In this document: in pieces, positions 2,148 through 62,463 of the stretch | Layout: every line of letters starts with the position of its first letter | Position numbering within the stretch: the first letter of the stretch is position 1 | From: an uncultured delta proteobacterium | GTDB lineage: Bacteria; Desulfobacterota; Binatia; Binatales; Binataceae | Length of the DNA stretch: 64,000 bases | Assembly (NCBI GenBank): GCA_963743865.1 | Contig: CAVURG010000006.1 | Span: 320,107-384,106 of the forward strand | Direction: 5' to 3' | The notes under the pieces: model-generated | Told to the model about the DNA's origin: nothing | What the model saw: only the letters and a program-made list of their open reading frames with translations | Database searches by the model: none | Made by a program: the position numbers and the translations under genes

Positions 2148-3021
2148 ATGACTATGAGAATGCGGATTGGAGCCTGCCGGTTGGTCCTGTCAACGATGGC
2201 CGCATTCGCCGCAGTCGCGTGGATCTCGCCGCCAGCGCGCGCGCAGAATGCCCCGGCTGGTGCGAGCGTGGCTGAAAGCGCCCCGATTCCCGCCTCGCAG
2301 ATCCCCAAGGAAATTACCGGCGCGATCAACTCGCCCGATCGGCCGGCCGCGGACAAGGCGCTCGACGCAGGCCGCAGGCCCGATCAGATCATGGCGTTTT
2401 ACGGAATCAAGCCCGGGATGAAGATCGCCGACATATTCGCGGGCGGCGGGTACATGACCGAGCTGTATGCGCGAATTGTCGGATCGACCGGTACGGTTTA
2501 CTCGCAGAACGGTCCGTTCCCTGTGCAGTTCAAGAAAACCGAAGATATCTGGAACGCAACGGCTCAAGGAGCCGGCGCTCAAGAACGTCGTCAAGGTCAG
2601 CAAACCCTTCGATGCGCCCGACCTGTTGCCGGTGCCGCCGGGCTCGCTCGACGCCGTAATCATCCATCTCAACTACCACGACATGGTCGGCTTCAAGCTC
2701 AATCGCGAGAACGTGAACGCGGCGGTGTTCAACGCGCTCAAGCCGGGCGGGATTTACGGGATCGTCGATCACAGCGCGCAGCCGGGCGCCAAGGATACGG
2801 TGACCACCACGCTCCACCGAATCGACGAGAATTTTCTAATCAAGGATGTGGAGAAGGCGGGCTTCAGGCTGTCCGGAGCGTCGAGCGCGCTGCGCCACCC
2901 TGAAGACGATCGCACCTGGATAATGTTCAAGTATCGCGGTCAGACCGATCGCTTCATGCTCAAGTTCACGAAGCGGCCGGCAATCGCGGCGGGCGCAGAT
3001 GGTTCGGGGTTGGGCAAATGA
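2148..3021 (+). CDS. secreted class I SAM-dependent methyltransferase (frameshifted as assembled)
   Basis: Signal peptide (AAVAWISPPARAQ) followed by MTase motifs (KIADIFAGGGYMTELYARIVG; LKPGGIYGIVDH). Track ORFs 2112..2903 and 2467..3021 join if one extra C near 2557 is removed (EDIWN|ERLKEPALKNV). Confidence 0.7.
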
Positions 3022-3902: not shown

Positions 3903-4067
3903 GCCTAGCAGGGTGTTGAAAAACTCGTATCAAAGGGCAGGTCGGGTCTCGCACCATTCAACACCCTGCATAAAAACTGTCCTCTTACCTACAACATCTC
4001 CCCCTTTGGGGGAGACACGAGAGAGGGAGCAGGCGTTGAAAATTACTTTTTCAACAGCCTGCTAGGC
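3903..4067. repeat. composite hairpin element filling a convergent intergenic gap
   Basis: Outer inverted repeat: gcctagcagggtgttgaaaaa (3903-3923) pairs with tttttcaacagcctgctaggc (4047-4067). Inner 13/13 stem: gcagggtgttgaa (3909) with ttcaacaccctgc (3957). Central hairpin tctccccctttgggggaga (3997-4015). A further stem lies at 4029-4061. Confidence 0.8.
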
Positions 4068-10093: not shown

Positions 10094-10151
10094 CCATTCG
10101 GCTGAATAATCGTTTATTATAAGGGTATCAGCGCGCCCAAAACCAGCACGC
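10094..10151 (-). promoter_or_regulatory. promoter-like module, copy A (upstream of tolQ)
   Basis: On the minus strand it reads ...GCGCGCTGATACCCTTATAATAAACGATTATTCAGCCGAATGG, with a perfect TATAAT (10121-10116) about 30 nt before the tolQ ATG. A second copy of the roughly 57-bp module lies at 11884-11940. Confidence 0.5.
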
Positions 10152-10189: not shown

Positions 10190-11794
10190 TCATGACCCGG
10201 AGTGAAGCAGGGCGCGTTGGGCCTGCAACTCGGCCAGCGCCTGCTCGAACATCGCGTCGCTGACCTGGGTGAGGGCCGCGGCCGAGTCCTTAAGTTCCGC
10301 ATGCTCGACGGCGCGCGAAAGGGTCTCAGCCGCGGTGGGTCCGCGTGGCTTGCCGAGGAAGGGCTTGAGAATCAGGTGAGCCACGTCGCGCATCGGCATG
10401 AAGCGCGTGAAACGGCGCAGGAGCGCAGCGGTCTGCAGCGGATAATGAAGCAGCTTGTAAAGGAATATTCTGCGGAAACCGGCGCTGCGCTCGCGGTTGA
10501 TCACCTCGCCCGGGATGCAGGTCCGATCGATCTCGGAGCACTTGAAAAACTTGAACCAGTCTCGGGCCTCGTCCACCAGGTTGCGGCGGATATATTCATT
10601 CCACAACGGGGTGCCGCGATAGACGCATAGGCGGTTGAAGTTGAACGTGTCGAGCGGAAGCCTTGCGGCAAAATCAAAAGTCGCCCGCAGGTCGGCCACG
10701 GTCTCGCCGGGGCTGCCGACCACGAAGAAGCCGTGCACGATTTCGATTCCCGCCCGCTTGGCGTTGGTGACCGCGGTCTCAACTTCCTTTAGGGTCTGGT
10801 CCTTCTCGAGCCGGTCGAGGACCTTCTGACTGCCGCTCTCGATCCCGAACATCACAGTGCGGCAATTGGCCTTGGCCATCAACGGATACAGATGCTCGGC
10901 GACCGAATCGACCCTGCCCTCGCAACCCCAGTGGATGGTCGGACCGCTGTCGATTAGCCCTTTGCAGATGGCTTCGATCCGCTTGGGTTGCAGCAGGAAG
11001 TGATCGTCGACAAAGTACACCGCACCGTAGCCGTGTTCCTTCAGATGCTTGAATTCCGCGAGCACGTGCTGATGGCTGCGCGAGCGCCATTTGCCGTGGT
11101 TGAAGCTCGGAATGTCGCAGAAAACGCAGTGCCGCGGGCATCCGCGCGACGTCTGCATCGTGGTGAATCGGTCCATTGACAGAACCGCCGGCACATCCAG
11201 CGGCATCGACTCGATGAAGTCCAGCGCGAGGCTTTCGCGGTCCGGAAAAGGCCACTGGTCGAGGTCGCGCTCGACAGCCCGGTCCGGATTGTTTACCACC
11301 CGGCCGTCTCGCGCCCAGGTCAGCCCGGCGACCGCCGCGGGATTGTCGAGCTGCTCAACCAGGTCGAGAATCAACTGCTCACCGTCACCGCGGCAGACAA
11401 AATCCACTTCGCTGCATTGCAGTTTCACCAGGGGCGCGTTCAGCGTCGCGAAGGCGCCGCCGATGGCGACTTTGACCTTGGAATCGACCGCGCGGATCTG
11501 GCGGGCTAGAATCTTGGCGTAGGGATAACTGGTCGTGCTCAGAAAACTCAACCCGACCAGTTCGGGCCGCCGCATGCGAATCTGCTCGACGATGACCTGG
11601 TTTGGTGTGTCGCTGTTGGCCTGGTCGAACATCACGCATTCATGGCCGGCGCGTTTGAGCACCGCGGAGAGCGCCATGATCCCGATCGGCGGAAACCCCA
11701 TGATGCGCAGGTTGCCGTTTTTCGCGCGCCCCTCGGCCGGCACGGCGTAAAATTGCGGATCGCGAACATGGATTAGAAATACCAGCATGGCCAC
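10190..11794 (-). CDS. B12-binding domain radical SAM protein (class B)
   Basis: 534-aa ORF. It has an N-terminal cobalamin-binding-like domain (PPIGIMALSAVLKRAGHECVMFD), the radical SAM cluster motif TSRGCPRHCVFCD, and GIESGS. Confidence 0.85.
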   Translation of the reverse strand: MAMLVFLIHVRDPQFYAVPAEGRAKNGNLRIMGFPPIGIMALSAVLKRAGHECVMFDQANSDTPNQVIVEQIRMRRPELVGLSFLSTTSYPYAKILARQIRAVDSKVKVAIGGAFATLNAPLVKLQCSEVDFVCRGDGEQLILDLVEQLDNPAAVAGLTWARDGRVVNNPDRAVERDLDQWPFPDRESLALDFIESMPLDVPAVLSMDRFTTMQTSRGCPRHCVFCDIPSFNHGKWRSRSHQHVLAEFKHLKEHGYGAVYFVDDHFLLQPKRIEAICKGLIDSGPTIHWGCEGRVDSVAEHLYPLMAKANCRTVMFGIESGSQKVLDRLEKDQTLKEVETAVTNAKRAGIEIVHGFFVVGSPGETVADLRATFDFAARLPLDTFNFNRLCVYRGTPLWNEYIRRNLVDEARDWFKFFKCSEIDRTCIPGEVINRERSAGFRRIFLYKLLHYPLQTAALLRRFTRFMPMRDVAHLILKPFLGKPRGPTAAETLSRAVEHAELKDSAAALTQVSDAMFEQALAELQAQRALLHSGS

Positions 11795-11883
11795 CTCTGG
11801 TCGCCGCCAACGCTTCGACTGCGTGCTGTACCCGCGTCGCCCCTCGCCAGCAGGTGAGCCTACTCGCCGGAATCATTCGGCTG

Positions 11884-11940
11884 AAGATTTTTTTATTATA
11901 ACGCTATCGGCGCGCCCCGAACCACCACGCAATCGGCCCC
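11884..11940 (-). promoter_or_regulatory. promoter-like module, copy B (upstream of the B12-radical SAM gene)
   Basis: About 45 of 57 positions are identical to copy A, including TATAAT (11910-11905) and CAGCCGAATG. It lies roughly 90 nt upstream of the ATG at 11794. Confidence 0.5.
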
Positions 11941-11973: not shown

Positions 11974-12273
11974 ATGAGCCTGCTTGCGGGGATACGTGCT
12001 ATAAGAGTGGACGTGGTCAGGTTCGATCCTCTGAAAAACGTGCCGCTTCACCGGGTTTGTTTTGCGCTTGCAGCGGTTGGACTAATCACACTCTTAGTCC
12101 AGGTTTTTTTCCCAAACGCTTATCTGCCCCTGATGCGCCAATGGCCTTACGTTCTCGGGATCGTTCCATTAAGTTTATTGACGATCTTTTATTTTCTGAT
12201 CGGGATTTACGTGTGGCGATTCGACCGGGATCAGCATCAGCCGATGCCGCCGTCTGCCAACGCCCACAATTGA
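11974..12273 (+). CDS. hypothetical small membrane protein
   Basis: 99-aa ORF with two hydrophobic stretches (FALAAVGLITLLVQVFF; VLGIVPLSLLTIFYFLIGIYVW). It lies 18 nt upstream of the rhodanese gene on the same strand. I recognise no family. Confidence 0.35.
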   Translation: MSLLAGIRAIRVDVVRFDPLKNVPLHRVCFALAAVGLITLLVQVFFPNAYLPLMRQWPYVLGIVPLSLLTIFYFLIGIYVWRFDRDQHQPMPPSANAHN

Positions 12274-13364: not shown

Positions 13365-13439
13365 GTCATCGACGCCGTGCCGGTTCCGTCAGGCTCAATC
13401 TGGGACAAGGAGAGGCTCAGGATCCGGGGCCCCTCGACT

Positions 13440-13840
13440 ATGCAGACTTCGCTCGGGATGACACAAGAGAAGAGCGCACGCCCCCTCGTGTCATTCTGAG
13501 CGAAGGCTGCGGTAGCGAAGAATCTCGACGAACACTCCGGCGTTCGGCGTTGGCCAGGCACGCGCTGGCGCGCGCGAGATCCTTCGCTGCGCTCAGGATG
13601 ACACAAAAAAAGTTCTAACCGGCCGTCAGGGCAGGGGCTGCTCCGTCGCGTAGTCGCGAAAAGATGCGCTGCGCAGATTTTCGCGTCTTATTACTACTGG
13701 GTGCAGGGGTCACCCCTGGCCGTGGCGACGGCAGCGCAGTGAATTAATACTGGCCCGTCGTGCCAACGACCGCCCGCCATCGGCGGGCGGCCTTACTACT
13801 GAGTGCAGGGCTCAGCCCTGCCCCCTGCCCCCTGCATTCG
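13440..13840. repeat. mosaic array of palindromic intergenic repeat modules
   Basis: It contains tgtgtcat(y)c(y)gagcgaag modules in both orientations (13447, 13488, 13577), the gaaaagatgcgctgcgcagattttc palindrome (13658), one full 102-bp unit (13704-13805) and caggg-N-ccctg hairpins. The same modules recur at the other repeat loci listed below. Confidence 0.85.
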
Positions 13841-13976
13841 CGACCCTTCTCGGCGTAGAATTAACCGTCGAATCGCCCTTGCACATCGGACCCGGACTTA
13901 TTTAAGGTTCGGGTCGTTGTATTTCACGGGTTCACGGTTTCACTGACACGCAACGCACTCTCGGGAGGATCGATCG

Positions 13977-14982
<1,006 letters not shown>

Positions 14983-15021
14983 CCGCGGGCAACCGAGCTG
15001 ACCCGGGAGTGAGTGGCTGCG

Positions 15022-16198
15022 ATGCCCGTATTACCGATCACGCGCCTTCAGTTCAAAGACAAGAAGGTGCTGGTGCGATGCGATTTCAACGTGCCGATCG
15101 CCGAGGGAAAAATCCAGGACCCGGCGCGAATCGACGCGAGCCTCGACACCATCCGCTACATCCTCGAACACGGCGGGTCGGCCGTGCTCTGCTCGCATCT
15201 GGGGCGCCCCAAAGAGCGCAGCGCCGAGCTCAGCCTCAAGCCGGTCGCCGAGTATCTATCGAAGGTGCTCGGGCAAAAGGTCGCGCTCGCGCCCGACTGC
15301 ATCGGCGATCACACCGGCAAAATGATCGAGGCGCTCAAGCCGGGCGAAGCGATTCTGCTCGAAAATCTGCGCTTCCACAAAGAAGAGGAAGCCAACGATC
15401 GCGACTTCTCGCATGAACTGGCGCGCCACAAACAGGTCTATGTGAACGACGGCTTCGGCTCCGCACATCGCGCGCACGCCTCGACCGTCGGCGTCACGCG
15501 CTTCATCCCGGAGCGCGCGGCCGGATTCCTGATGATGCGCGAACTCGAGGCGCTGCGCGCGGTCACCGAGAATCCGCAGCACCCGTCGGTCGCGATCCTG
15601 GGCGGCGCAAAAGTCTCCGACAAGATCGGGCTGATCAGAAATCTGCTGACCAAGGTCGATGCGATCCTGATCGGCGGCGCGATGGCGTACACGTTTCTCA
15701 AGGCTCAGGGCGTCGCCGTCGGCCGCTCGCGCGTCGAAGACGACAAGCTCGAGCTCGCCAGCGAATTGCTCGCCGAGGCCGCGCGCAAAGGCGTCAAGAT
15801 CGTCCTGCCGTCGGATCATATCGTCGCATCCGCTCCCGAAGCCGGCGCGACGCCTCATACGGTCGCCGAAATTCCCTCCGAGATGATGGGGCTCGACATC
15901 GGACCGCGATACCGCGGCGGCGTTTATCGCGGAAATCGCGCGCGCCAAAACCGTCATATGGAATGGCCCGCTCGGATTTTTCGAGATTCCGGCGTTCGCC
16001 GGCGGCACGCTGCGAGTCGGCGAGGCGCTCGCCAATCAATCGGGCGTCATTTCGATTATCGGCGGCGGCGACACGGCTGCGGCCTTCGCGCATGCGCCGT
16101 GGGCCAACAAGTTCACGCATATCTCGACCGGCGGCGGCGCCACGCTCGAATATCTGGAAGGCCGCGAGCTGCCGGGCGTGAAGGCGCTCGAAGTCTGA
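15022..16198 (+). CDS. pgk: phosphoglycerate kinase (frameshifted as assembled)
   Basis: [10 protein letters not shown] and GLDIGP are present. It continues in another frame as [25 protein letters not shown]...[24 protein letters not shown]. The break is near 15908 and the stop is at 16196-16198. A GTG at 15013 is an alternative start. Confidence 0.9.
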
Positions 16199-16221
16199 AT
16201 CGGACAGCAGGAAGGACGCGC

Positions 16222-17005
16222 GTGCGCAAGAAACTAATCGCCGGAAACTGGAAGATGCATCTTGGGCCGGCTCGAGGCCCGCGCGCTCATCGCCGCAATC
16301 CGCGCCGAGATCGATCGCGACGCCGCGGCGCTGGCCAAAGATCGCGACGTGATGGTCGCGCCGCCCGCCATTCTCATCCCGGCCGTGGCGCAGGCGCTCG
16401 CCGGCTCGTCGATCGTGCTGGGCGCGCAAAATATGCACTACGAGGACAAAGGCGCGTTCACCGGCGAAGTCTCGCCGCCGATGCTCAAGGCCGTATCGGC
16501 GTGACCCACGTCATCCTCGGCCATTCAGAGCGCCGCCACATTTTTCATGAAAGCGACGAACTGATTAACCGCAAAGTGCTCGCCGCGCTCGAAGCATCGC
16601 AATGGCGCCGATTCTGTGCGTCGGCGAGACCCAGGAGGAACACGACAGCGGCCGCGCGCTCGATGTCGTGATGCACCAGCTCCAGCGCGGGCTCGAGAAC
16701 GTTGGCGACGATCAGGTGCGCCGCAGTGGCGATTGCCTACGAGCCGGTGTGGGCGATCGGCACCGGGCGCACCGCGACGCCCGACGCAGGCCGCAGTCTG
16801 TCCACGGCGCGATCCGCGACGCGATCCTGCGAACGCTACGGGCCCGAGCGCGCGTCGCGCGATGCGGATAATTTACGGCGGCAGCGTAAACGCCGACAAT
16901 GTTGACTCGCTCGTCTCCAAGCCCGATATTGACGGGGCTCTGGTCGGCGGGGCAAGCTTAAAGGCTGACTCGTTCGCGCGCATCGTCAGGGCGCGGACTC
17001 GCTGA
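16222..17005 (+). CDS. tpiA: triose-phosphate isomerase (seven frameshifts as assembled)
   Basis: The conserved blocks are spread over three frames: [11 protein letters not shown]; [25 protein letters not shown]; [13 protein letters not shown]; PILCVGET; [14 protein letters not shown]; RIIYGGSV...GALVGGASL. Frame changes occur near 16268, 16494, 16600, 16722, 16788, 16828 and 16860. Confidence 0.85.
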
Positions 17006-17471: not shown

Positions 17472-17557
17472 GCGCGGGTGGTGGAATGGCAGACACGCCA
17501 GTTTGAGGGGCTGGTGGTAGCAATACCGTGCGGGTTCAAGTCCCGCTCCGCGCACCA
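17472..17557 (+). tRNA. tRNA-Leu (anticodon GAG)
   Basis: Hand-folded. Acceptor stem GCGCGGG/TCCGCGC, 3-bp D stem, anticodon stem CCAGT/GCTGG with loop TTGAGGG, long variable arm (GGTA gcaa TACC), T arm GCGGG TTCAAGT CCCGC, discriminator A and an encoded CCA. Confidence 0.9.
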
Positions 17558-17855
17558 GCAGGGCTGACCCCTGGCCGTGGCGACGGCAGCGCAGTGAATT
17601 AATACTGGCCCGTCGTGCCAACGACCGCCCGCCAACGGCGGGCGGCCTTAACATTGGGTGCAGGGGTCAGCCCTGGCCGTGGCGACGGCAGCGCAATGAA
17701 TTAATACTGGCCCGTCGTGCCAACGACCGCCCGCCATCGGCGGGCGGCCTTAACATTGGGTGCAGGGGCCGCAGCCCCTGCCCAAGGAAGCGTGAAACCC
17801 AGGCGGGTTTCACATTCAATCAAGTGTATTTGCCTCCCGTCACCCCTGCACCCGG
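17558..17855. repeat. two tandem 102-bp four-hairpin units plus further palindromic modules, directly after tRNA-Leu
   Basis: Units at 17559-17660 and 17661-17762 are near-identical to each other and to 13704-13805. They are followed by caggggccgcagcccctg, gtgaaacccaggcgggtttcac and cacccctgcaccc. Confidence 0.9.
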
Positions 17856-18837: not shown

Positions 18838-18954
18838 CTGACGGCGCGCCTATTTTCGCTTTTCCTTCGCTATTCGTCAAGGGTGATTATGTTTCTGTTG
18901 ACTCCGAAGGTCGCCGGAACGTAAAATCCGAGTCAAGGGAAGTGAGAAAAATGA

Positions 18955-19827
18955 ATGCACCTTCCCGAAAAATGTCAGAGTGAAGAAAGACCGCATCGCG
19001 GCTCGCTGCTCGGAATCATCAATGCTGATGGAAGGCCAACGGTAGTGCGCGTCGTTTATTCAGACGAAAGCGGTGTTGGAGATGGAAAAGAACCGATCAC
19101 GGTCGTGACCGGAATCGTCATCAATATGGACAAAGTTTGGGAAGAAGTGCAGGAACGCTTGGAAGACATACTTCAAAAGACTCCTAATATCCTGCTCGAA
19201 GAAAAGCGAAAGACATTCGTACTTAAAGGCAGACTTCTTTATTCGATTCTTCGCAAGCGTCGAACACTGCCGGAACTTGCGACGGGCGCAGAAACGCTCT
19301 TGCACAGAGTTCTCGCGATTCCAGTAGATTGTTGTATTTCGATCTTTTACGGAGCCATTGACCGGAAGAAGTATGAGCGAAGCGAAAAGAAGCGCGGACT
19401 AAGCGAGCGTGAAAAGAAAGCCATTGGTCAGGATGCCACTACTTACGATTTGGCTTTTGATCAGTGTCTGCGCAAAGTAGAGAACATAGCCCGCTCATTC
19501 ACTAACGAGAAAATTCTATGGATAGCCGAACAGAGCGACAAGCAGCGAGAGCCGTCAACCAGGATGCTGCACAGAGTTCATGGATTGCGTGTGGAAAGTG
19601 ATGGGGAATCCCCGAATCTGAATCGGCCTCATCAGAGTCCAATAGCCGACACAATTTATTTTGGAGACCCTATAGCATCTGTCGCTTTACAGTTGGCCGA
19701 CGTTATTTGTTCTACGGTGACGCTTTACTTACTGGAGAAACACTACCGCTGGAGACCTGTGGCGACTCCGTTTTACAAATTCATTGAGGGCAACGTCATC
19801 GAAGCCACTCCGCCGATGCTGCTATAG
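18955..19827 (+). CDS. DUF3800 domain protein (cargo of the IS1595-family element)
   Basis: 290-aa ORF with the N-terminal VVYSDESG motif and C-terminal ALQLADVICS motif that I associate with DUF3800 (Pfam PF12686, from memory). The gene is low in GC. Confidence 0.6.
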   Translation: MHLPEKCQSEERPHRGSLLGIINADGRPTVVRVVYSDESGVGDGKEPITVVTGIVINMDKVWEEVQERLEDILQKTPNILLEEKRKTFVLKGRLLYSILRKRRTLPELATGAETLLHRVLAIPVDCCISIFYGAIDRKKYERSEKKRGLSEREKKAIGQDATTYDLAFDQCLRKVENIARSFTNEKILWIAEQSDKQREPSTRMLHRVHGLRVESDGESPNLNRPHQSPIADTIYFGDPIASVALQLADVICSTVTLYLLEKHYRWRPVATPFYKFIEGNVIEATPPMLL

Positions 19828-19863
19828 ACTTCGATTCTTCCGCATCAAAATACCCGTTGTGAT

Positions 19864-19986
19864 TGGCCTGCACCCCAATTTCCCGCCATTCATAAGTAGA
19901 GTCCGCCGGTTATTTGGCCCCCTCCTGGGGCGCGTTGTTTGTGGTTTTGGTTTCATCTTCATCCCAGTTTTTCCGGCCGCCCTTCA
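19864..19986 (+). mobile_element. 123-bp MITE-like deletion derivative of an IS3/IS407-type IS
   Basis: The left end tggcctgcaccccaatttcccgccattcataagtagagtccgcc parallels the IRL region of the neighbouring IS (tggcctgccccccgaaaactccgccgaaatgaggtagagtccgtc). The right end cagtttttccggccgcccttca parallels its IRR (cagtttttcggccgccctca). It has no coding capacity. Confidence 0.7.
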
Positions 19987-20922
19987 CTCTCTGAGGGCGG
20001 CCGAAAAACTGTCAGGTTTTGGATCCGAGGTCGGCGCGCCTTGCACCGCGCCGGCCAGCGCTTGGGCTGGCCAAGCGGTGCGCGCGATGGCCGAGCTCCC
20101 TTGATTCCTTGCCGCGAACTCCTCCGGCGCCAGGTAGCCGAGACTCGAGTGCGGGCGCAGCTGGTTGTAGTCGTGCCGCCACGCCTCGATGATCGCGCGC
20201 GCTTCCCCGAGGCTGCTGAACACGTACTCGTTAAGGCACTCGTCGCGCAACTTGCTGTTGAATGATTCGATGAAGGCGTTCTGCACGGGCTTGCCCGGCT
20301 CGATGTAGTGCCACGCGACCCTTCTCGTGGCCCAGCGCAGCACCGCACCACTGGTCAGTTCGGTCCCATTGTCGCTAACCACCGTCTCCGGCAGCGCTCG
20401 TTCGAGCGTGAGCCGCTCCAGTTCGCGCACCACCCGTACCCCGCCCAGCGAGGTGTCGACCACCGTCGCCAGACACTCGCGGCTGAAGTCGTCCACCACG
20501 CACAGGATGCGGAAGCGGCGGCCGTCGCTCAGCGTGTCCGAGACGAAGTCGAGCGACCAGCGCTGATTGATCGCACTCGGCAGCGTCATCGGTGCCCGCG
20601 TACCTAGTGCCCGCTTTCGCCCTCGACGCCGGCGCACCATCAGCCGCTCTTCGCGGTACAGCCGATAGAGCTTCTTGTGGTTCAGCGCGTGACCTTCGCG
20701 CGCCAGCATCCAGCCTAAGCGCCGGTACCCGAAGCGCCGCCGCTCCGCGGCCAGCTCCCGCAGTCGTTGCCTCAATGCCGAGTCGTCCGGTCGTCTGCAC
20801 CGGTAGCGCAAAGTCGAACGATCCAGCTCCACCAACTCGCACGCATGCCGCTGACTCAGCCCGTGACGCTCCATTACCCGAATCACTGCTACTCGCCGCG
20901 CCGCAGGCTTCAGACGTTTTTT
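19984..20922 (-). CDS. IS3-family transposase OrfB (DDE/rve domain; expressed as OrfAB by -1 frameshifting)
   Basis: Track ORF 19984..20886. The rve-type catalytic core shows WSLDFVSD...[11 protein letters not shown]...[16 protein letters not shown]. The reading frame is open upstream to the slippery site at 20916-20922. The stop codon lies 6 nt outside the inferred IS end. Confidence 0.85.
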
Positions 20923-21242
20923 CCGAGCAGGTCCTTGAGCGCCGCGTTGTCCAGCAGCGACTCGGCCAACAGTCGCTTCAGGCGCCGGTTCTCATCCTCC
21001 AGCGCCTTCAGCCGCCTGGCGTCCGATACCTCCAGCCCGCCGTACTTCGACTTCCACTTGTAAAAGGTCGCGCTCGAGATCCCGTGGCGCCGGCACACCT
21101 CTTCGGTCCTCGCCCCGGCCTCCTGCTCCCGCAGCACCCCGATGATCTGCTCCTCCGTGAAGCGGCTTCCTTTCATCGCCCGTCTCCTTTTTCAGGCGAC
21201 GGACTCTACCTCATTTCGGCGGAGTTTTCGGGGGGCAGGCCA
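19992..21242 (-). mobile_element. IS3-family insertion sequence (IS407-like), about 1.25 kb
   Basis: It ends in TG...CA (IRL read from 21242: TGGCCTGCCCCCCGAAAACTCC; IRR read from 19992: TGAGGGCGGCCGAAAAACTG). It carries orfA and orfB with an A_AAA_AAC slippery site. I found no target-site duplication. Confidence 0.8.
20910..21176 (-). CDS. IS3-family transposase OrfA (HTH)
   Basis: 88-aa protein: [47 protein letters not shown]... followed by a leucine-zipper-like tail. It ends in GGA AAA AAC GTC TGA, which contains the frameshift heptamer. Confidence 0.9.
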
Positions 21243-22137
21243 CGGGATCATTGCGCCCGTTGAATCGGAAGGCAAATTCATTGACGTAGAGCGGCAGATA
21301 TTCGCGTGTGACGTGATGGAAGCTGCCCATGATGCCGCGTTTGAGCAGCGACCAAAACGATTCGATAGTCTGTGTGTGAACCGTGCCGGTAACGTACTGA
21401 TGTTTGCTGTGATTGACCGTCTGATGGACGAAACCGTGAGCGCCAAGATGGCGATAGCCGGGGTGTTCATCGGTCACGACCAACTTCGCTTTGGTGGACA
21501 CCGCTTCTTTGACGAAATCCCCCATCGTCGTGAATCCCATTTCATCAACGGAGCGAGCGATGACGCTGCCCTTGCGCGCGATTGCGGCGATCACGGTCGC
21601 CTTGGTGCTGCCGCCCGGAATGCCGGTCTTTTTGTTCCAATGCCGATTCTTGTCCTTGCCGCCGATATACGTCTCATCAACTTCAACGACGCCCTCAAGC
21701 TGATCGATGCCGCCGCGCATCGCGCAACGGAGCCGATGGCACATGAACCAGCTTGTGCGGTAATCGGAGCCGGAATCTTCGCCGAACACGGTACGATGAA
21801 TTTGTAGAGCGCTGATTCCTTTCTTGCTGGTCAGCATCAGGTAGGCAACGCGAAACCAAATATCGAGCGGAATCTTCGTGTCCTGAAAGATCGTCTTCGT
21901 GATCACGGAGAAGCGATAGCCGCCGTTCTTGCTGCAAGTAACCGGCTTGCCTTCCGTGTCCATCGTGATCTTTCCGCTCTTGCAGACCCAATGAAACGGG
22001 CGCGCCTTGAGCGTAATCACGCGGGCATTACCGCATCGCGGGCAGACCGGACCATCAGGCCAGCGACATTCAGCCAGCAGCTTCTTACATGCATCTTCGT
22101 TAGGGAAATCAGCCTCAAAGGCTTTCAACGTCTTCAT
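21211..22137 (-). CDS. IS1595-family (ISXO2-like) transposase, 3' end interrupted by the IS3-family insertion
   Basis: N-terminal zinc ribbon (CPRCGN) and a DDE region (VEVDETYIGG...VVTDEHPGY...TQTIESFWSLLKRG...YVNEFAFRFN). The last 10 codons of the track ORF (VACPPKTPPK) are read from the IS3 inverted repeat beyond 21242. Skipping 19864..21242 would extend the frame by about 22 codons to a stop near 19796. Confidence 0.8.
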   Translation of the reverse strand: MKTLKAFEADFPNEDACKKLLAECRWPDGPVCPRCGNARVITLKARPFHWVCKSGKITMDTEGKPVTCSKNGGYRFSVITKTIFQDTKIPLDIWFRVAYLMLTSKKGISALQIHRTVFGEDSGSDYRTSWFMCHRLRCAMRGGIDQLEGVVEVDETYIGGKDKNRHWNKKTGIPGGSTKATVIAAIARKGSVIARSVDEMGFTTMGDFVKEAVSTKAKLVVTDEHPGYRHLGAHGFVHQTVNHSKHQYVTGTVHTQTIESFWSLLKRGIMGSFHHVTREYLPLYVNEFAFRFNGRNDPVACPPKTPPK

Positions 22138-22339
22138 GGCTCAGACTCTACGCTTTTTCACTGTTGGAGTCAATAGCAACATAATCCCCTCGTCAAGTTG
22201 CGCCGGCCAGACGCCTTTCCAGCGAGCGGGATTGCGGCATCATCCGAGGCTATACAGGAGCATCTGGAGCGGCAAAGCTGCTAGGTTCTAGCGGGAGCGC
22301 ATGGCGCGGGGTACCGCGCCGCAATTGGAGGAAAAGGCG

Positions 22340-24204: not shown

Positions 24205-24282
24205 GCCGGTAAACCTCTAGTGACCGCGGCCGATCGTAGCGCAAAGTGGACGCAACAGCGGCGGGAAGAGAACTTGATTGTA

Positions 24283-24370
24283 ACGAAACCCACCGTGGGT
24301 TTCGTGCTTCCTTGGGCGGGTGACCCCTGCACCAATGTTAAGAAAAGATGCGGGACTTTGTCCCTGTTAA
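24283..24370. repeat. palindromic repeat modules
   Basis: cgaaacccaccgtgggtttcg + cttccttgggc + gggtgacccctgcacc + aagatgcgggactttgtccctgtta. The same module order, in either orientation, occurs at 53195-53292; the aagatgcggga module also occurs at 28988. Confidence 0.85.
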
Positions 24371-24419
24371 ACTTGGCCGGCGGAGCATCTTCTGGTTTGC
24401 GGCGCGCCTTGATAGAGAG

Positions 24420-28824: not shown

Positions 28825-29330
28825 CTTAACTGTAGTGAAACCCGCCGTGGGTTTGCAGGGGTGACCCCTGCACCCAGTATTAAGGCCGCCCGCCGTTGGC
28901 GGGCGCGGCCGCTGCCAACGGCTTAATACTGCGCTGCCGTCGCCACGGCCAGGGGTAACCCCTGCACCTTAGTAAGAAGAGAAGAAAAGATGCGGGACTT
29001 CGTCCCTGTTAGAACAGGTTAGGGAGGAAGTGGTGGCTTTGTTTTTGTGTCATTCTAGAGCGAAGCGAAGAATCCCGGTTCCTTCCTAGCCTCGCCCTGC
29101 AAGGGAGAGGATCAAGGTGAGGGTCCGATTACAGCGCGCCCTGTTTCCCCTTCTTAGTACTGGCCTCCCGTGCCAACGGGTCTTAACCCTGGCTACCCGT
29201 GCCCACGGGCGCGCGATTCAGGATTCTGCGTCCGAATCCTTTAGCCGTCCGCTTCTTATCTTTGCGTCATCCCGAGCGAAGCCGAGGGACCTCGGATCTT
29301 GTCCATTTGCGCGGCTAATCCGGACGCCTA
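28825..29330. repeat. mosaic array of palindromic repeat modules (includes an inverted variant of the 102-bp unit)
   Basis: gtgaaacccgccgtgggttt (28835); inverted unit variant at 28856-28964; aagatgcgggacttcgtccctgtta (28988); tgtgtcattctagagcgaagcgaagaatc (29046); ccctgcaagggagagg...ggtgaggg (29095); gcgtcatcccgagcgaagccgagggacc (29264). Confidence 0.85.
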
Positions 29331-39724: not shown

Positions 39725-39900
39725 GTGCAGGGGCCAGCCCCTGCACCCGGGTAAGGAGAACGCGGGAGAGGCTTCTTTGATTACCTCGCCCGTTATTTCA
39801 CGGGAGAGGAGGCCGACCGCTTGGCGGTCGGTAGGTGAGGGTGTGCGGCCGCTCGCTTTTTTTTGTGTCATCCCGAGCGTAGCCGAGGGACCCCGGATCT
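39725..39900. repeat. palindromic repeat modules
   Basis: gtgcaggggccagcccctgcaccc (39725); hairpin ccgaccgcttggcggtcgg (39812); tgtgtcatcccgagcgtagccgagggacc (39864). Confidence 0.8.
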
Positions 39901-40225
39901 GATTCCTTAATGCTGACCGTCGCGCTCGGCATCGCGCGAGCGGGCTTCGCGTCAGAAGCGAATAGTCCGGCGGCCCGACCCGGATTTTTGCCGTGATGCC
40001 GTGACGGTTGCGGCAACCGGAGAAGATGAATATTCGTTTATGACGCGCGACAATTTCGGACATGGGTAAGAATTCCATGCTATGCTCCATGTCCGAAATG
40101 GTTGATCGCCCACGCAGAAGGTAGAAAACTAGCGGCGGACAGATAAACATCGCCTGCGGTTGGCTGGGGAACTGTCGCAGCCGTTGGCAGGCATGAAAAC
40201 TGCTCCCCGTGGAAGGAGGAAGCTC

Positions 40226-40580
40226 GTGCGGACAAATGTGGCGTCGATAATTAAAGGTCTGCTCGTGGCGATTGCGATCGTGGCGGTCATGGGATGCTCG
40301 GGACAGCCACTCTCGACACGTGAGAAGGGCACGTTCATCGGCACCGGAGTCGGAGCCGCAACCGGCGCGATTATAGGCGCCGCGGTGGCGTAACCCGCTG
40401 GCAGGTGCGGCAATCGGCGGCGGCATCGGCGCGCTTGGCGGATACGTGGTCGGCAACGAGATGCAGAATCAGGAAAACGCCAACGCTCAAACTCAGACGC
40501 AGATTCAATCGCAGCAAAAGCAGATCGAAAATCAGCAACAGCAGATTCAGCAATTGAAGAGCCAGAGCGAAACCGAATAG
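40226..40580 (+). CDS. glycine-zipper lipoprotein with Q-rich coiled-coil tail, paralogue 1 (frameshifted as assembled)
   Basis: GTG start after AAGGAGGA. Lipobox AVMGC, then SGQPLSTREKGTFIGTGVGAATGAIIGAAV. One extra T at 40391 creates a stop. The protein continues as NPLAGAAIGGGIGALGGYVVGNEMQNQENANAQTQTQIQSQQKQIENQQQQIQQLKSQSETE*. Confidence 0.75.
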
Positions 40581-40596
40581 CAGGCGGAGAAGGGAT

Positions 40597-40943
40597 ATGC
40601 GCAAACATGCAATTGCGACAGGTACATTCGCCGTTGCCGCGCTTTTCCTTGTCGCCGGATGCTCCGGGACGCCGCTTTCCACGCGTGAGGAAGGCACTCT
40701 GGGCGGTGCGGGTATCGGCGCGGCCACCGGCGCGATTATTGGCGCCGCGGTCGGCGCACCGCGCAGGCGCTGCAATCGGCGCCGCGACTGGGAGGAGTAG
40801 GCGGCTTCGCGGTCGGCAACGCGATGCAGAATCAGGAGAACGCCAACCAGCAGACCCAGGCGCAGATCCAGCAGCAGCAACAGGAATTGGAACAGCAGCG
40901 TCAGCAGATTCAGCAATTGAAGGGACAGCAGGAAACCGAATAG
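40597..40943 (+). CDS. glycine-zipper lipoprotein with Q-rich coiled-coil tail, paralogue 2 (two frameshifts as assembled)
   Basis: MRKHAIATGTFAVAALFLVAGC SGTPLSTREEGTLGGAGIGAATGAIIGAAVGAP. It continues through two 1-nt insertions (about 40762 and 40793) to AGAAIGAATG and then GVGGFAVGNAMQNQENANQQTQAQIQQQQQELEQQRQQIQQLKGQQETE*. Confidence 0.75.
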
Positions 40944-40984
40944 CTCGGCTGACGTATAAACATTGGAAGATGGAGGTTCTCATT

Positions 40985-41333
40985 ATGCGCAAAAGTATTG
41001 GAGTAATCATGAGTCTGGCGCTGGCGGGAACGCTCGTTCTTGCAGGATGCACGGGGCAGCCGCTCTCGACTCGTGAGGAAGGCACCCTCGGCGGCACGGC
41101 GCTTGGGCGCAGGTGGCGGGGCAATCGTAGGCGCGGCTGTAGGCCATCCTCTGGCGGGCGCCGCGATCGGCGGTGTTCTGGGCGGCGGTACCGGCTATGT
41201 AGTCGGCAATCCGATGCAGAATCAGGAAAACGCCAACGCACAGACCCAGCAGCAGGTGCAGCAGCAACAGCAAGAGATCGAGAATCAACGCCAGCAGATT
41301 CAACAGCTCAAATCGCAGTCGGAAACCGAGTAA
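40985..41333 (+). CDS. glycine-zipper lipoprotein with Q-rich coiled-coil tail, paralogue 3 (frameshifted as assembled)
   Basis: MRKSIGVIMSLALAGTLVLAGC TGQPLSTREEGTLGGTAL. An extra G lies in the run at about 41105. It continues as GAGGGAIVGAAVGHPLAGAAIGGVLGGGTGYVVGNPMQNQENANAQTQQQVQQQQQEIENQRQQIQQLKSQSETE*. Confidence 0.75.
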
Positions 41334-45947: not shown

Positions 45948-45987
45948 CAGGAGTTCAAGAGTAGCGGGTCACTCGGCGCCGCGCGAG

Positions 45988-46030
45988 CAGGGGCCAGCCC
46001 CTGCACCTTAGTCAGGAGAAGATGCGGATG
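45988..46030. repeat. palindromic repeat modules
   Basis: gcaggggccagcccctgcacc followed by ttagtcaggagaagatgcgg. The same modules occur at 39725 and 28965. Confidence 0.75.
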
Positions 46031-46081
46031 GCGTTAAGCTGCGACAGTGTTAGATAATGGTCCGCACGGAGGAATTGCCGC

Positions 46082-51164: not shown

Positions 51165-52098
51165 CGCGCGTGACGATCCTGCCGGCCAGTTCGATTCGCA
51201 GCGCGTGCGCGAGTCTTAAAAAGTCGGGTACGCCGAGCCTCTCGGCGCGCGTGGCCGGATCGATCGCCGCGCGTTCGAGCGCGCGCGCGATCCGCGCGCT
51301 GTCGATTCCAAGCGCGTGGCTGAGCGCATTGCGAATTGTCTTGCGCGGCGCAGAGAACGAGGCGCGCACGGTTTCGAGCACGTCGCGTTCGTTTTCGTTG
51401 CCGGCCGCAAACGTCTGCGTCGCCCTGGGCGTGAAAGCGAGAACTTCGGCGTCGATCTTGGGACGCGGATGGAAGCTGCCCGCGGCGACGCTGAAATGCA
51501 GGTCGATCTCCCAGTAAAGCGCGTTGAATACGCTCAACGCGCCATACGCCTCGTCGCCGGGGGTCGCGCGAATCCGCGCGGCGACTTCGCGTTGAAACAT
51601 CAGGACCATTCTCGAAATCATGCGCGCGTTGTCGCTGAGCCGGCGCAGGATGGCCGCCGCGACATTGAACGGAAGATTGCCGATTACCTTGACTGGCGGA
51701 TCGGTGACCAGCGCCGCGAAATCGATCGCAAGAAAGTCGGCGTTGATGACGCGAACGTTCGCGTCGCCGCCGTCTGCGAAGCGCTCCCGGAGCCGGGCGG
51801 CGAGGCGCGGGTCGAGTTCCACCAGCGTCAGCGAGCGCAACGGCCGCGCCGCGATTTTCTCGGTCAGGATGCCCAGGCCGGGACCTATCTCGACCACCGG
51901 GTCCGATTCGGACAGCTCCGCCGCGGCGACGATTCGATCGGCGACGGCGCCGCTGGTCAGGAAATTCTGGCCGCGCGATTTTGCCGGCCGCACGCCGGCT
52001 GCTCGCCAGCGCCGGTGCGGGACGCGACGGCGTTTCAGTTCCGCCGGCGGTGCTGTTGGCTGGCTTAAGTTTGCGGCGCGCGTGCGATTTTCGTGCAA
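51157..52098 (-). CDS. rsmA: 16S rRNA (adenine1518/1519-N6)-dimethyltransferase
   Basis: GQNFL, VVEIGPGLGILT and VIGNLPFNV motifs. Confidence 0.9.
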   Translation of the reverse strand: MHENRTRAANLSQPTAPPAELKRRRVPHRRWRAAGVRPAKSRGQNFLTSGAVADRIVAAAELSESDPVVEIGPGLGILTEKIAARPLRSLTLVELDPRLAARLRERFADGGDANVRVINADFLAIDFAALVTDPPVKVIGNLPFNVAAAILRRLSDNARMISRMVLMFQREVAARIRATPGDEAYGALSVFNALYWEIDLHFSVAAGSFHPRPKIDAEVLAFTPRATQTFAAGNENERDVLETVRASFSAPRKTIRNALSHALGIDSARIARALERAAIDPATRAERLGVPDFLRLAHALRIELAGRIVTRDA

Positions 52099-52116
52099 TC
52101 GTCATCTGCTCCGGAT

Positions 52117-53121
52117 TCAAAGCGCGAGATTGGCTTCCGCGTCGATGCTGAGCGCGTCGCGCTCGCCGCGAATCAGACGGTAGCTGCCCGCGAGCGCGAT
52201 CATCGCCGCATTATCGGTGCAATATTCGAGCGCGGGTGCGACCAGCCGGCGGCCATCGGCCGCCGCTGCCTCGGCCAGCCTGTCGCGCAATCTCGAATTT
52301 GCCGCGACGCCGCCGGTCAGTGCGATGGTGTCCGCGCCCAGTTCGCGCGCGGCGGCGATGGTCGGCTTCACCAGCATATCGACGACAGCTTCCTGAAAGC
52401 TCGCGGCGAGATCCTCGGGCCGCTCGGCGCGGCCATCCTCGCTGGCCAGAATAGTTGCGACCGCCGTCTTCACGCCGCTGAAACTGAAATCCATGGGCGC
52501 GCCCCTGACATGGGCGCGCGGGATTCGCACGCGCTTTCGATTGCCGCGGCGCGACATCTCGTCGATCGCGCGACCGCCCGGATAGCCCAGTCCCATCAGC
52601 TTGGCGACCTTGTCGAACGCCTCGCCGGCGGCGTCGTCGCGAGTGCATCCGATCCGGCGGTAGCGCCCGAAATCCTCGACCGCGAACAGTGCAGTGTGAC
52701 CGCCGGATACGACCAGCGCCAGGTACGGCATCGCGATGCGATTTTCCAGCAGCGGCGCCAGCAGATGGCCCTCGATATGATTCACGCCGACCATCGCCAC
52801 GCCGCTCGCCTGCGCCAGCCCCTTGGCGAACATCAAGCCGACCAGCAACGAGCCGACCAATCCCGGCCCGCGCGTGACTGCGATTCCCTCGATGTCCACG
52901 AGCCGGCATCCGGCGCCGCCCAGCGCGCGCTCGATGACGGGCGCAATCGTGACGACGTGGCTGCGCGACGCGAGTTCGGGAACGATACCGCCGTAAGCGC
53001 GATGGATGTCGTCCTGATTGGCTACCGTGCTGGAGCGAATGTCGGCGATGCCCGGGGCGGTGGTTTCGAGCACCGCGGCGGCAGCGTCGTCGCACGAAGA
53101 TTCAATTCCGAGTATCAGCAT
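52117..53121 (-). CDS. tsaD: tRNA N6-adenosine threonylcarbamoyltransferase
   Basis: MLILGIESSCDD, HIEGH, SGGHT and LTGGVAANSRLR. I chose the start at MLILG because the upstream 13 codons of the track ORF are a translated repeat module. Confidence 0.9.
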   Translation of the reverse strand: MLILGIESSCDDAAAAVLETTAPGIADIRSSTVANQDDIHRAYGGIVPELASRSHVVTIAPVIERALGGAGCRLVDIEGIAVTRGPGLVGSLLVGLMFAKGLAQASGVAMVGVNHIEGHLLAPLLENRIAMPYLALVVSGGHTALFAVEDFGRYRRIGCTRDDAAGEAFDKVAKLMGLGYPGGRAIDEMSRRGNRKRVRIPRAHVRGAPMDFSFSGVKTAVATILASEDGRAERPEDLAASFQEAVVDMLVKPTIAAARELGADTIALTGGVAANSRLRDRLAEAAAADGRRLVAPALEYCTDNAAMIALAGSYRLIRGERDALSIDAEANLAL

Positions 53122-53130
53122 CGCGAGTTT

Positions 53131-53292
53131 GCTCAGGATGACACAAAAGCAGGATGACACAAGAAAACGGACGCGCGGGCTATTTCCTTACCAACCCCTT
53201 CTAACAGGGCGAAGCCCGCATCTTTTCTTAATACTAAGGTGCAGGGGTTACCCCTGCCCAAGGAAGTGGGAAACCCACGGTGGGTTTCACGT
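53131..53292. repeat. palindromic repeat modules
   Basis: gctcaggatgacaca occurs twice. Then come taacagggcgaagcccgcatctt, ggtgcaggggttacccctgcc, caaggaag and gggaaacccacggtgggtttcac. This is the inverted order of the array at 24283-24370. Confidence 0.85.
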
Positions 53293-53314
53293 TAGATTAA
53301 GTCGCTCCGCGTGT

Positions 53315-54245: not shown

Positions 54246-54252
54246 TAGCGGA

Positions 54253-60544: not shown

Positions 60545-60905
60545 TAGTCTAGCACTGCGATTGAATGTGAAACCCACCGTGGGTTTCACACTTCCCTGGG
60601 CAGGGGCTGCACCCCTGCACCCGCAGTGAGAAGACGTGAAAATCTGCGCAGCGCATCTTTTCACGACTACGCGATGGCAGAGGGTGACGCCTGGCCACCG
60701 TTAATCGAAAAATCCGCAGGATGCGTCTTTTTCTCACACGGCCGAGAGCGAGAGACGCGCTGCGCGTATCTCGCTCTCGCGCGAGAAACCGAGAGAAAAG
60801 GGCGCTTCGGCGCACTTTTCGATTGATACTGCGGGTGCAGGGGCCGCAGCCCCTGCCGCCCACCGCGCAGGTGATTCTCCCTTCATGCCGCCGTCCGTTG
60901 GCGGG
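60545..60905. repeat. largest mosaic array of palindromic repeat modules (about 360 bp)
   Basis: gtgaaacccaccgtgggtttcac; gggcaggggctgcacccctgcaccc; gtgaaaatctgcgcagcgcatcttttcac; gaaaaatccgcaggatgcgtctttttc; gagagcgagagacgcgctgcgcgtatctcgctctc; gaaaagggcgcttcggcgcacttttc; ggtgcaggggccgcagcccctgcc; gccgccgtccgttggcgggggcgg. Confidence 0.85.
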
Positions 60906-60910
60906 GGCGG

Positions 60911-62161: not shown

Positions 62162-62167
62162 CTCAAT

Positions 62168-62285
62168 CGAGCAGGGGTGACCCCTGCACCCAATGTTAAG
62201 GCCGCGCTCCGTTGTCGCGCGCGGCCACTGCCGCCGGCGCGCGGCTTCTTAATACTGGCCAGCCATGCCGGCGGCATGAGCTGGG
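62168..62285. repeat. palindromic repeat modules (diverged inverted relative of the 102-bp unit)
   Basis: gcaggggtgacccctgcacccaatgttaaggccgcg...cgcggcc...ttcttaatactggcc...catgccggcggcatg. Confidence 0.75.
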
Positions 62286-62463
62286 TCATGAACACTACCA
62301 CCAGCTCCTCCGTGGGGTCCATCGGGAAGATGGCGGGGGCTGCTCCGCCGCAACAGCAGTCGCCTTCGCCGGGCGCGCCCGGGGAAAATAGCGATCACGC
62401 GCCGGATCGAACTCCCGTGGCAAGATTCGCAACAGGCCGTATTTTCCGGCTAGAATCGCCGCC

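Follow-up and report, generated by a model that had tools for sequence, protein, structure and literature searches.

Polar mosaics of hairpin repeats in the intergenic gaps of a Candidatus Binatus genome

Introduction

We describe here a system of short hairpin repeats that occupies intergenic gaps in a 64,000-nucleotide stretch of DNA (hereafter, the window) from an uncultured member of the Binataceae, namely positions 320107-384106 of contig CAVURG010000006.1 (C6) in the assembly GCA_963743865.1. In the initial annotation of the window, nine gaps had been described as mosaics of palindromic modules, drawn from a single combinatorial vocabulary and used in either orientation and varying order, in the manner of repetitive extragenic palindromic (REP) sequences and bacterial interspersed mosaic elements (BIMEs). 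The nine loci and all of the modules are indeed present; order and polarity within the arrays are, however, largely fixed, and instead of one vocabulary we find about four longer repeat families, differing in age and spread, that are chained in one direction through a shared polar hairpin, called A.

REPs have been sorted into a GTAG-tagged and a CGTC-tagged superfamily (Di Nocera et al. 2013, PMC3733652). The GTAG REPs go with genes of REP-associated tyrosine transposases (RAYTs), and units of REP and RAYT, the REPtrons, can be lost; the CGTC REPs often have TGTC as their tag, start the stem with A-T, are found mostly in head-to-head dimers and lack an associated transposase (PMC3733652). The described CGTC families, from five phyla, have stems of 8-9 bp and loops of 4-5 nt, and one of them, CGTC-1, is dRS3 of Neisseria, which builds large intergenic mosaics interleaved with other repeats (PMC3733652). 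Full-text searches found no paper on repeats in Binatota.

Results

Repeat arrays of the window

The arrays are written with letters for modules and > or < for module orientation, and those of the window read as follows.

13447..13823, minus strand (forward direction of the array on the minus strand): D< D> D< E< A< H< J< F A<, in the mauE/gap spacer
13447-13466, 13487-13530 and 13581-13606, same array: D arms
13650-13653, same array: GTAG tag, followed by the E hairpin at 13654-13685
13704-13718 and 13806-13820, same array: A hairpins, with the U1 body (H, J, F) at 13719-13789
17558..17855, minus strand: A, two tandem 102-nt U1 units (H< J< F A<) and B> with a ACATTCAATCAAG flank, beginning 1 nt past a tRNA-Leu gene (ARAGORN, 17472-17557)
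24272..24370, plus strand: B-A-C unit of ~100 nt in which A is degenerate, lying between a BNR-repeat gene (its 5' end) and the next open reading frame (ORF)
28835..29300, plus strand: near full-length array B A> F H> A> C> D> ... D>, starting 27 nt past a phosphodiesterase stop codon
39727..39899, plus strand: A, an extra CCTCGCCCG...GGTGAGGG hairpin block and a D arm, directly after the gamma-glutamyltranspeptidase stop
45987..46030, plus strand: A and a truncated C, in the divergent metG/GST gap
53131..53302, minus strand: D< (two partial arms) C< A< B>, inside an operon, where ~190 nt separate the stop of the upstream gene from the tsaD start
60564..60878, plus strand: B< A> E>, further hairpins and A, between the GT9 and acyl-CoA dehydrogenase genes
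62171..62264, plus strand: A> L G, a U1 unit in its G variant, between the divergent acyl-CoA dehydrogenase and PALP-enzyme genes

When consensus units were assembled from over-represented 14-mers, two of ~107 nt and some shorter ones were obtained, and the modules turned out to be parts of about four longer families (U1, U2, B-A-C and D). Common to the families is hairpin A, GCAGGGG-N3-8-CCCCTGCACCC, which is polar in that CAC(C) stands on exactly one side in 213 of 260 copies, the flank being CACCC or CACCT (GGGTG on the other strand) in 202 copies. U1 (A-L-F/G-H), a unit of ~102 nt that can repeat in tandem, leads from hairpin A through linker L to the GC hairpin F, for which variant G may stand, and on to block H and the next A, with the consensus AGGGGTGACCCCTGCACCCAGTATTAAGG-CCGCCCGCCGTTGGCGGGCG-...-CTTAATACTGCGCTGCCGTCGCCACGGCC-AGGGGTGACCCCT. 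In U2, an A variant (CAGGGGCTGCGGCCCCTG) is connected by a 17-nt linker (CACCCGCAGTGAGAAGA) with hairpin E, which has ACTAC; on the opposite strand, E reads GTAG-TCGCGAAAAGATGCG-CTG-CGCAGATTTTCGCG and is thus a GTAG-tagged hairpin with a stem of ~14 bp, the tag being present in 49 and an identical core in 31 of the 53 copies. B-A-C is a discrete unit of ~105 nt; a BLAST search with window positions 51500-54400 returned dozens of copies at 82-93% with the same ends in every genome of the genus tested. Family D has the sequence (T/C)GTC-ATYCY-GA-GCGNAGC-GA-RGRAT-C with a GCGNAGC mini-hairpin at its centre and often forms inverted pairs.

All of the modules fold into stable hairpins on either strand, and linkers such as CACCCAGTATTAAGG and CTTCCTTGGG are conserved between them. 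The stem of A, furthermore, shows covariation, with CAGGGGT/ACCCCTG in 122, CAGGGGC/GCCCCTG in 51 and CAGGGCT/AGCCCTG in 37 copies. No GTAG tag is present on A, the commonest hairpin, which fits neither the GTAG nor the CGTC tag. Beside the D arms, we also noticed an extra recurrent hairpin block, CCTCGCCC...GGGAGAGG...GGTGAGGG, at window positions 29085-29260 and 39770-39850 and in the tsaD gap of one relative (G001); it was missing from the initial list of modules.

Abundance and placement in the genome

The assembly (G000; G-numbers are used for relatives, and L-numbers for loci from relatives or other collections) has 3.67 Mb at a G+C content of 62%, of which C6 makes up 3.57 Mb, and the methionyl-tRNA synthetase of the window is 92-96% identical to those of Candidatus Binatus metagenome-assembled genomes (MAGs) from peat and soil. 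Ten small contigs (C1-C5 and C7-C11) are near-duplicate stretches of C6 and probably represent strain variants; one of them, C1, matches C6 at either end (the first 6.5 kb and the last 5 kb), which makes a closed circle probable for C6. At window 13977-16671, the genes gap, pgk and tpiA are split across frames, with breaks near 14867/14872, 15908/15930 and 16195/16268, which are probably indel errors of the long-read assembly, or else mark pseudogenes. Similar frame breaks reduce the measured coding fraction genome-wide, and the rated completeness, 82.6%, is lowered by them. Because genes are split in this manner, coding status was taken from dicodon-scored, frameshift-tolerant segments and not from whole ORFs, which gave coding-like sequence for 80.6% of the genome.

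Against a background of five third-order Markov simulations of C6, with both strands counted, every module was strongly over-represented: A (CAGGGG-N3-6-CCCCTG) occurred 384 times versus 0-2 in the simulations, A with the CACC flank 162 versus 0, B 56 versus 0-2, C 27 versus 0, D 50 versus 1-2, E 53 versus 0, F 94 versus 0-2, and the motif TTAATACTGG 86 versus 0-1. Arrays with at least two modules number ~155 on C6 and together cover ~27 kb; the repeats are evenly distributed along the 3.57 Mb, and the window holds 8 such arrays versus 2.8 expected from the genome average. Just 0-4% of the module copies lie inside coding-like sequence. Among gaps of at least 150 nt, repeats were found in 43 of 176 convergent (24%), 96 of 770 tandem (12.5%) and 27 of 342 divergent ones (8%), with an odds ratio of 3.8 (p = 5e-7) for convergent versus divergent gaps. 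The genome-wide abundance and the intergenic preference on which the initial annotation had staked its proposal were therefore borne out, with convergent gaps being favored.

Polarity and order of the modules

When all modules were annotated with their orientation, the arrays were found to follow one order, B< A> (E> A>)n (F/G H> A>)n C> D>, in which F/G stands for F or G. The most frequent adjacent pairs were A>F (49), A>E> (45), B<A> (44), A>G> (41), A>C> (34), H>A> (31+15), F-H> (29) and C>D> (18). Within an array, the polarity is common to modules A, E, H, G and C; 92% of the polar modules match the majority polarity of their own array, and 101 of 131 arrays are fully consistent. Hairpin A stands ahead of F, E, G and C and behind H and B, being the module directly before E> in 45 of 47 cases, and successive A hairpins are arranged directly and do not alternate. 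The two ends of the arrays are also defined: B is the first module in 49 of the 55 arrays that contain it, and C> is followed by the end of the array in 29 cases, by D> in 17 and by any other module in only 2. The shared polar A hairpin thus links the families into chains of a single direction and order, contrary to the free combination that had been proposed.

Comparison among Binatus genomes

Modules were surveyed in 36 genomes of the genus Ca. Binatus and in 24 genomes of other families in the class, and syntenic DNA from six relatives was compared with the window. Polar A was present at 30-200 copies in 32 of the 36 genus genomes and, apart from one chance match, absent from the 24 others. 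Hairpin E is limited to a six-genome subclade of closest relatives (53 copies in G000, 85 in G002, 81 in G005, 40 in G008, 17 in G031 and 10 in G034) and is considered to be young, because its copies are nearly identical. The E sites differ between G000 and G002, the latter being collinear with almost all of the window (2-60617) at 93% nucleotide identity; in this comparison, ~14 of ~39 true module copies are conserved.

In the mauE/gap spacer (13447..13823), G002 has D< D> D< H< G< A<, in which the E cassette is missing and G stands instead of F. In the gap after tRNA-Leu, the outer parts, tRNA-A and A-B>, are common to both genomes, whereas the inner cassettes, A> G> E< A< in G002, differ in identity as well as in orientation; another relative, G013, has just an A there. 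The B-A-C unit at 24272-24370 is missing from the orthologous gap of G002, and G013 has B< A> D>. Synteny with G002 stops at 28854, inside the first A of the 28835 array. The gap at 39727 contains A> A> G> in G002 and none of the modules in G013, and the metG/GST gap contains B< A> in G002 and, at L001 (96% amino-acid identity), a complete C-A-B in which B abuts the metG ATG. As for the acyl-CoA dehydrogenase gene (60911-62161) with its flanking arrays (window 60634-62409), G005 has 392 nt in place of the whole segment.

In the tsaD gap, G005 shows an empty site (0 nt), with the upstream stop a few bases from the tsaD ATG; G004 and G013 have 19 nt between the anchor genes, G009 a partial A-B, G001 D< C< A< B> with extra hairpin and sequence, and G002 an unrelated 80-105 nt. 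Alignment with the six relatives places the tsaD start (CAT) at window positions 53120-53122, and the extension of the ORF to 53160 is therefore repeat sequence. The initial annotation had taken several ORFs and 5' extensions to be translations of the modules, which holds for this extension of tsaD, the conserved start being the one at 53120-53122 and not 53160.

From one sister species to another, therefore, the arrays change by whole cassettes that have A at their borders, and precise empty sites are also found. Neither of the two clean filled/empty pairs (tsaD and 24265-24407) showed a target duplication, a terminal inverted repeat or a conserved target, and 14 aligned B-A-C copies gave no convincing target duplication or terminal repeats. 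These data bear on whether the arrays might be an artefact of assembly or binning, or ordinary miniature inverted-repeat transposable elements (MITEs) moved by a DDE transposase. The frame-breaking indels and the small duplicate contigs speak for the former, and a true MITE with CTAG duplication does exist at 3909-4061. Identical modules, however, occur in 32 independently assembled genus genomes, from short as well as long reads, so that misassembly, including one confined to a single contig, is excluded and the artefact reading refuted; the even spread over 3.57 Mb and the lack of terminal inverted repeats and target duplication in the main families at the clean pairs further argue against both ideas, which, taken together, we regard as extremely improbable.

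The MITE itself is unrelated to the hairpin mosaics. It is 153 nt long (window 3909-4061), with terminal inverted repeats (TIRs) CAGGGTGTTGAAAAA and TTTTTCAACAGCCTG and the CTAG target duplication; the corresponding site of G002 is exactly empty (GCGCCTAGGCCGC), and G002 carries another copy, of ~237 nt, at the site matching window position 12222. The end motif of this MITE, GCAGGGTGTTGAA, occurs 36 times in the genome.

Search for a transposase

The initial annotation had found no RAYT gene in the window and implied that one might drive the repeats from elsewhere in the genome. The absence extends to the whole assembly, where a search with Pfam Y1_Tnp (PF01797) gave 0 matches while positive controls responded, and tblastn with the Y1 proteins of relatives gave nothing better than E = 0.05. 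When 47 genus genomes were surveyed, 13 had a Y1_Tnp match, with no relation to repeat load: matches were absent from the A-rich genomes G005 (200 A copies), G002 (172), G033 (163; 4 contigs) and G007 (88; one contig), and G018 has three matches and zero copies of A. None of the six genomes with at least 10 E copies, some of them rated 94-98% complete, contains Y1_Tnp. Also, no repeat modules were found flanking the Y1 genes of relatives. A RAYT driver was rejected, as neither the Pfam searches of assembly and genus nor tblastn turned up anything that tracks the repeats.

One of these relatives' genes, at L079 (G018:C115, 1300-1990 and 2780-2830), is accompanied by its own two-hairpin inverted repeats, CTTCGGCGCTGAAAGCGCCGAAGG and CCCAGGGCGTTGCCCTGGG, with a third copy 900 nt away, and resembles a REP/TIR-RAYT unit of the ordinary kind, though from a different family. 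The sole multi-copy transposase found in the genome under study is a 3-copy IS3-family element of 1380 nt (window 19864-21243; ORFs 20910-21176 and 19984-20886, minus strand), located inside a 3.3-kb segment (18884-22200) of lower G+C content (55% around 18-20 kb), in place of which G002 has 5 nt.

Could the repeats nonetheless be classical REPs or REP doublets forming hairpins (REPINs) that were copied by a RAYT whose gene has been lost very recently or is missing from the assemblies? The GTAG tag in 49 of 53 copies and the long stem make E similar to the published GTAG families, and REPtrons are known to be deleted in some strains (PMC3733652); some members of the genus do carry Y1_Tnp, the gene of G018 being flanked by its own REP-like inverted repeats, and the assembly is rated just 82.6% complete. 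Such a history, however, would have to hold also for the five other E-rich genomes, including those rated 94-98% complete, and for A-rich G007 and G033 with their few contigs; the Y1 genes that relatives do have lie without the modules at their sides, A has no GTAG, and the arrays are direct and polar and do not consist of inverted REPIN doublets. We therefore consider this explanation quite unlikely.

Tests for function

In tandem gaps, 51 arrays were co-directional and 46 anti-directional with the flanking transcription, so that a preferred orientation relative to neighboring genes, which was to be looked for according to the initial annotation, was not observed; nor was there a replichore strand bias of the arrays along the chromosome. 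Terminator-like sites were not enriched (22 versus 17.2 +/- 3.7 in shuffles). Module C has a terminator-like hairpin with a T-rich tail on the reverse strand only, and in the fold of the C-D junction the T-run pairs with a purine-rich tract upstream of the C hairpin. A terminator role was accordingly rejected, given that the sites do not exceed those in shuffles and only reverse-strand C scores. A module lies within 60 nt of just 3 of the 49 tRNA genes, and in Rfam the window matched a tRNA only, the best hit in 13380-13900 having E = 1.8 with no family at its gathering score. A strand-specific RNA role of the arrays is not supported.

Module B deserves separate mention. Across Binatus species, the metG start codon is directly preceded by one of two alternative sequences (window 45948-46081; L001-L030 at about 2900-3000), that is, a 'native' GAGTCTCCCGCTATTCTCGATCTCCTG-ATG and the module B version, GTGAAACCCACnnTGGGTTTCGCATACAATTAAGnnG-ATG. 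In many species, B before the metG ATG contains GTGAAA-18 nt-TACAAT, 7 nt upstream, and this -10-like TACAAT so near an ATG without a Shine-Dalgarno sequence hints at a leaderless metG transcript driven from the repeat. By a hand count, however, only ~16 of 41 B ends face the 5' end of a gene, and of the 5 B copies in the window, 3 are directed into the 3' ends of genes in convergent arrangement. B as a general promoter was rejected on these grounds, and, since its ends are not aimed at gene starts, there would be at most an occasional exaptation.

It might also be supposed that the arrays are kept by selection as RNA or DNA signals, such as terminators, 3'-end stabilizers, small RNAs or protein-binding sites. 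The strong extragenic bias with the 3.8-fold convergent/divergent enrichment, the stable hairpins of all modules with their compensatory changes, the terminator-like reverse strand of C and the promoter-like B before metG are consistent with this idea. It is at odds, on the other hand, with the balanced directions, the number of terminator-like sites, the missing Rfam match and the orientation of B; moreover, about two thirds of the copies are unconserved at 93% identity, and at tsaD an array sits within an operon directly before a start codon, where close relatives manage without it. Selection for such signals is in our view improbable as the general reason for the arrays. Rather, the lack of preference for direction, terminators and tRNAs leads us to regard the repeats as DNA that is mostly selfish or neutral and is exapted on occasion.

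Module D in other phyla and in viruses

In the module survey, D was present in 35 of the 36 genus genomes and in 3 of the 24 from other families. Its 26-nt pattern, TGTCATYCYGAGCGNAGCGARGRATC, gave at least 120 matches in a collection of species-representative genomes, for which ~0.03 would be expected by chance. Among the matches listed are Acidobacteriota, Chloroflexota, Nitrospirota, Bacteroidota, Bacillota, Planctomycetota, Verrucomicrobiota, Gemmatimonadota, several classes of Proteobacteria, groups of the candidate phyla radiation and a Nanoarchaeota bin, and the 26-nt arm is nearly unchanged in more than 20 phyla of those listed; the carriers include cultured ones, such as strains of Mucilaginibacter, Pedobacter or Hymenobacter. 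At least 120 viral contigs in IMG/VR also have the pattern, at times several per contig (loci L331-L410), so that viruses or prophages could carry the D arm between phyla. No recurrent neighbor gene of D was found in 120 loci among the matches listed, a GIY-YIG gene occurring in just 3 of the 120.

Both variable pairs of D are Watson-Crick in 48 of 52 arms of this genome and in 144 of 151 cross-phylum copies among the matches listed; for the latter, the covariation is unbiased because the search pattern allowed all pair combinations. At the N of GCGNAGC, the base varies freely (C 53, A 50, T 27 and G 21 in 151 arms among the matches listed). A DNA hairpin with the sequence GCGNAGC is described as an extraordinarily stable mini-hairpin (PMC13037366), and this stability favors a D fold that is read as single-stranded DNA.

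With respect to the REP superfamilies, the tag of D in this genome is TGTC in 45 and CGTC in 4 of 52 arms, and the stem starts with AT, as imposed by the search pattern. The stem has 9 positions, a tandem G.A step among them; of the 52 arms, 25 have GNA as a 3-nt loop and 15 carry a longer insert of 13-15 nt instead, and the tail is C plus variable bases and not CCA. Paired arms are 6 head-to-head versus 4 tail-to-tail in this genome, and of the 151 cross-phylum arms among the matches listed, 60 are paired within the 130-nt limit with an inverted arm, at distances of 12-98 nt and with the tags on the outer sides. D is, therefore, similar to the CGTC/TGTC REPs in its tag, A-T stem start, the inverted dimers with tags outside that part of its arms form, lack of a neighboring transposase and occurrence in several phyla, but differs in the tandem G.A/A.G step, the 3-nt GNA loop, the missing CCA tail and the range of more than 20 phyla among the matches listed. 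While the GTAG in 49 of 53 copies assigns E to the GTAG superfamily by its tag, D thus agrees with the CGTC superfamily in tag and A-T but not in loop and tail. Full-text literature searches turned up no paper in which the D sequence is printed. The breadth of conservation of this arm is the most unexpected by-product of our analysis.

Other features of the window and genome

Window positions 40281-41332 contain three tandem units of ~365-390 nt, 62-77% identical, over a minus-strand ORF (40129-41241) with no Pfam match, and may represent a repetitive protein or a repeat array. An AT-richer direct repeat of 57 nt, 82% identical (CATTCGGCTGAA...TTTATTATAA...), at 10095-10151 and 11874-11930 flanks the gene at 10190-11794. 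Outside the window, a CRISPR array is located at C6:1105332-1107012 with 28 copies of GGTCTATCCCCGCGTGCGCGGGGGAACC.

Discussion

In terms of classification, the system is a RAYT-less, polar variant of mosaics of the REP, BIME and Neisseria intergenic mosaic element (NIME) type; the variant is new and the class is known. The assignment to REP/BIME made in the initial annotation stands insofar as the repeats are extragenic palindromic mosaics and E and D carry published REP tags, but does not extend to alternating orientation. Like the REPs and BIMEs of enterobacteria and pseudomonads, the modules are short extragenic palindromes in hundreds of copies, assembled into mosaics with conserved linkers, with a preference for 3' ends and convergent gaps, compensatory stem changes and, on E, GTAG. 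Unlike in REPs and REPINs, no RAYT is found here, and the main hairpin A is flanked by GGGTG/CACCC and not by GTAG; the modules are arranged head-to-tail in one polarity, while BIMEs alternate and REPINs are inverted doublets, and they follow a fixed order with distinct end modules, B at one end and C-D at the other.

The mosaics of Neisseria, in which dRS3 is also a target of filamentous prophage integration, offer a second comparison, although no counterpart to such integration was seen here. NIMEs are likewise made of differing non-coding units of 50-150 nt that are bounded by one short palindrome, have interleaved families and lack a dedicated transposase, and D is in the same tag superfamily as dRS3. 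In NIMEs, however, the bounding repeat is dRS3 (ATTCCC-N8-GGGAAT), whereas here it is A, with the dRS3-like D being terminal; the polarity of our arrays is fixed, and the host belongs to another phylum. As an analogy only, the joints of integron attC and IS200-IS605 systems could be compared, where a single-stranded hairpin with polar flanks would likewise lie between cassettes of one orientation; here, no integrase or Y1 partner was found, and the cassettes are non-coding and ~50-100 nt long.

We consider it probable that the arrays are non-coding, non-autonomous repeats of the REP type, which form mosaics at ~150-200 loci of Ca. Binatus, are chained with one polarity through A, spread independently of a RAYT and are mainly selfish or neutral. 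According to this proposal, copies would reach new gaps by a RAYT-independent route acting on hairpins of single-stranded DNA, for which a trans-acting enzyme or host replication and repair at hairpins are candidate agents. Once in place, arrays may lengthen, shorten and exchange cassettes when recombination or template switching takes place at A. The repeats would be mainly selfish or neutral and tolerated where they are least harmful, i.e., at 3' ends and in convergent gaps, and any effects on neighboring genes, such as that of B as the sequence directly before metG, would be incidental.

Several points weigh against this proposal. The two clean filled/empty pairs, showing neither target duplication nor terminal inverted repeats, give no insertion mechanism, and the differences between species could in principle reflect differential loss from a richer ancestor and not new insertions. 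A single-copy gene could be missing or broken in the assembly because of its 82.6% completeness and frame-breaking indels. The enrichment in convergent gaps equally fits a selected role at transcript 3' ends, and the coding and gene model is home-made.

A more specific form of mobility without a dedicated transposase can also be envisaged, in which A would act as an attC- or dif-like cassette site and D as a horizontally spreading element of single-stranded DNA that is read by a factor common to most bacteria. Swapping of cassettes in one orientation at an attC/dif-like A, by an unnamed or host enzyme, would explain both the fixed grammar and the young, RAYT-less expansion of E. We think this reading, with its two linked parts, unlikely.

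Conclusions

In conclusion, the intergenic gaps of this Binatus genome contain about four families of hairpin repeats joined with a fixed order and polarity. Binatus is a widespread, uncultured lineage of soil and peat, and the arrays are of practical relevance for its genomics: they create false ORFs and false 5' extensions, as seen for tsaD, so that masking of the modules would improve Binatus gene calls, and they break the short-read contigs of Binatus MAGs, those of G008 terminating within repeats. The variation of cassettes at orthologous gaps, furthermore, provides high-resolution markers for strain typing in metagenomes. The near-invariant D arm over phyla and viral contigs widens the known range of CGTC-type REPs and is a concrete sequence with which the factor recognizing it can be sought. 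Finally, seemingly young GTAG-tagged REPs without a RAYT and polar head-to-tail chaining do not fit the current REPIN-RAYT model and point to another route of propagation.

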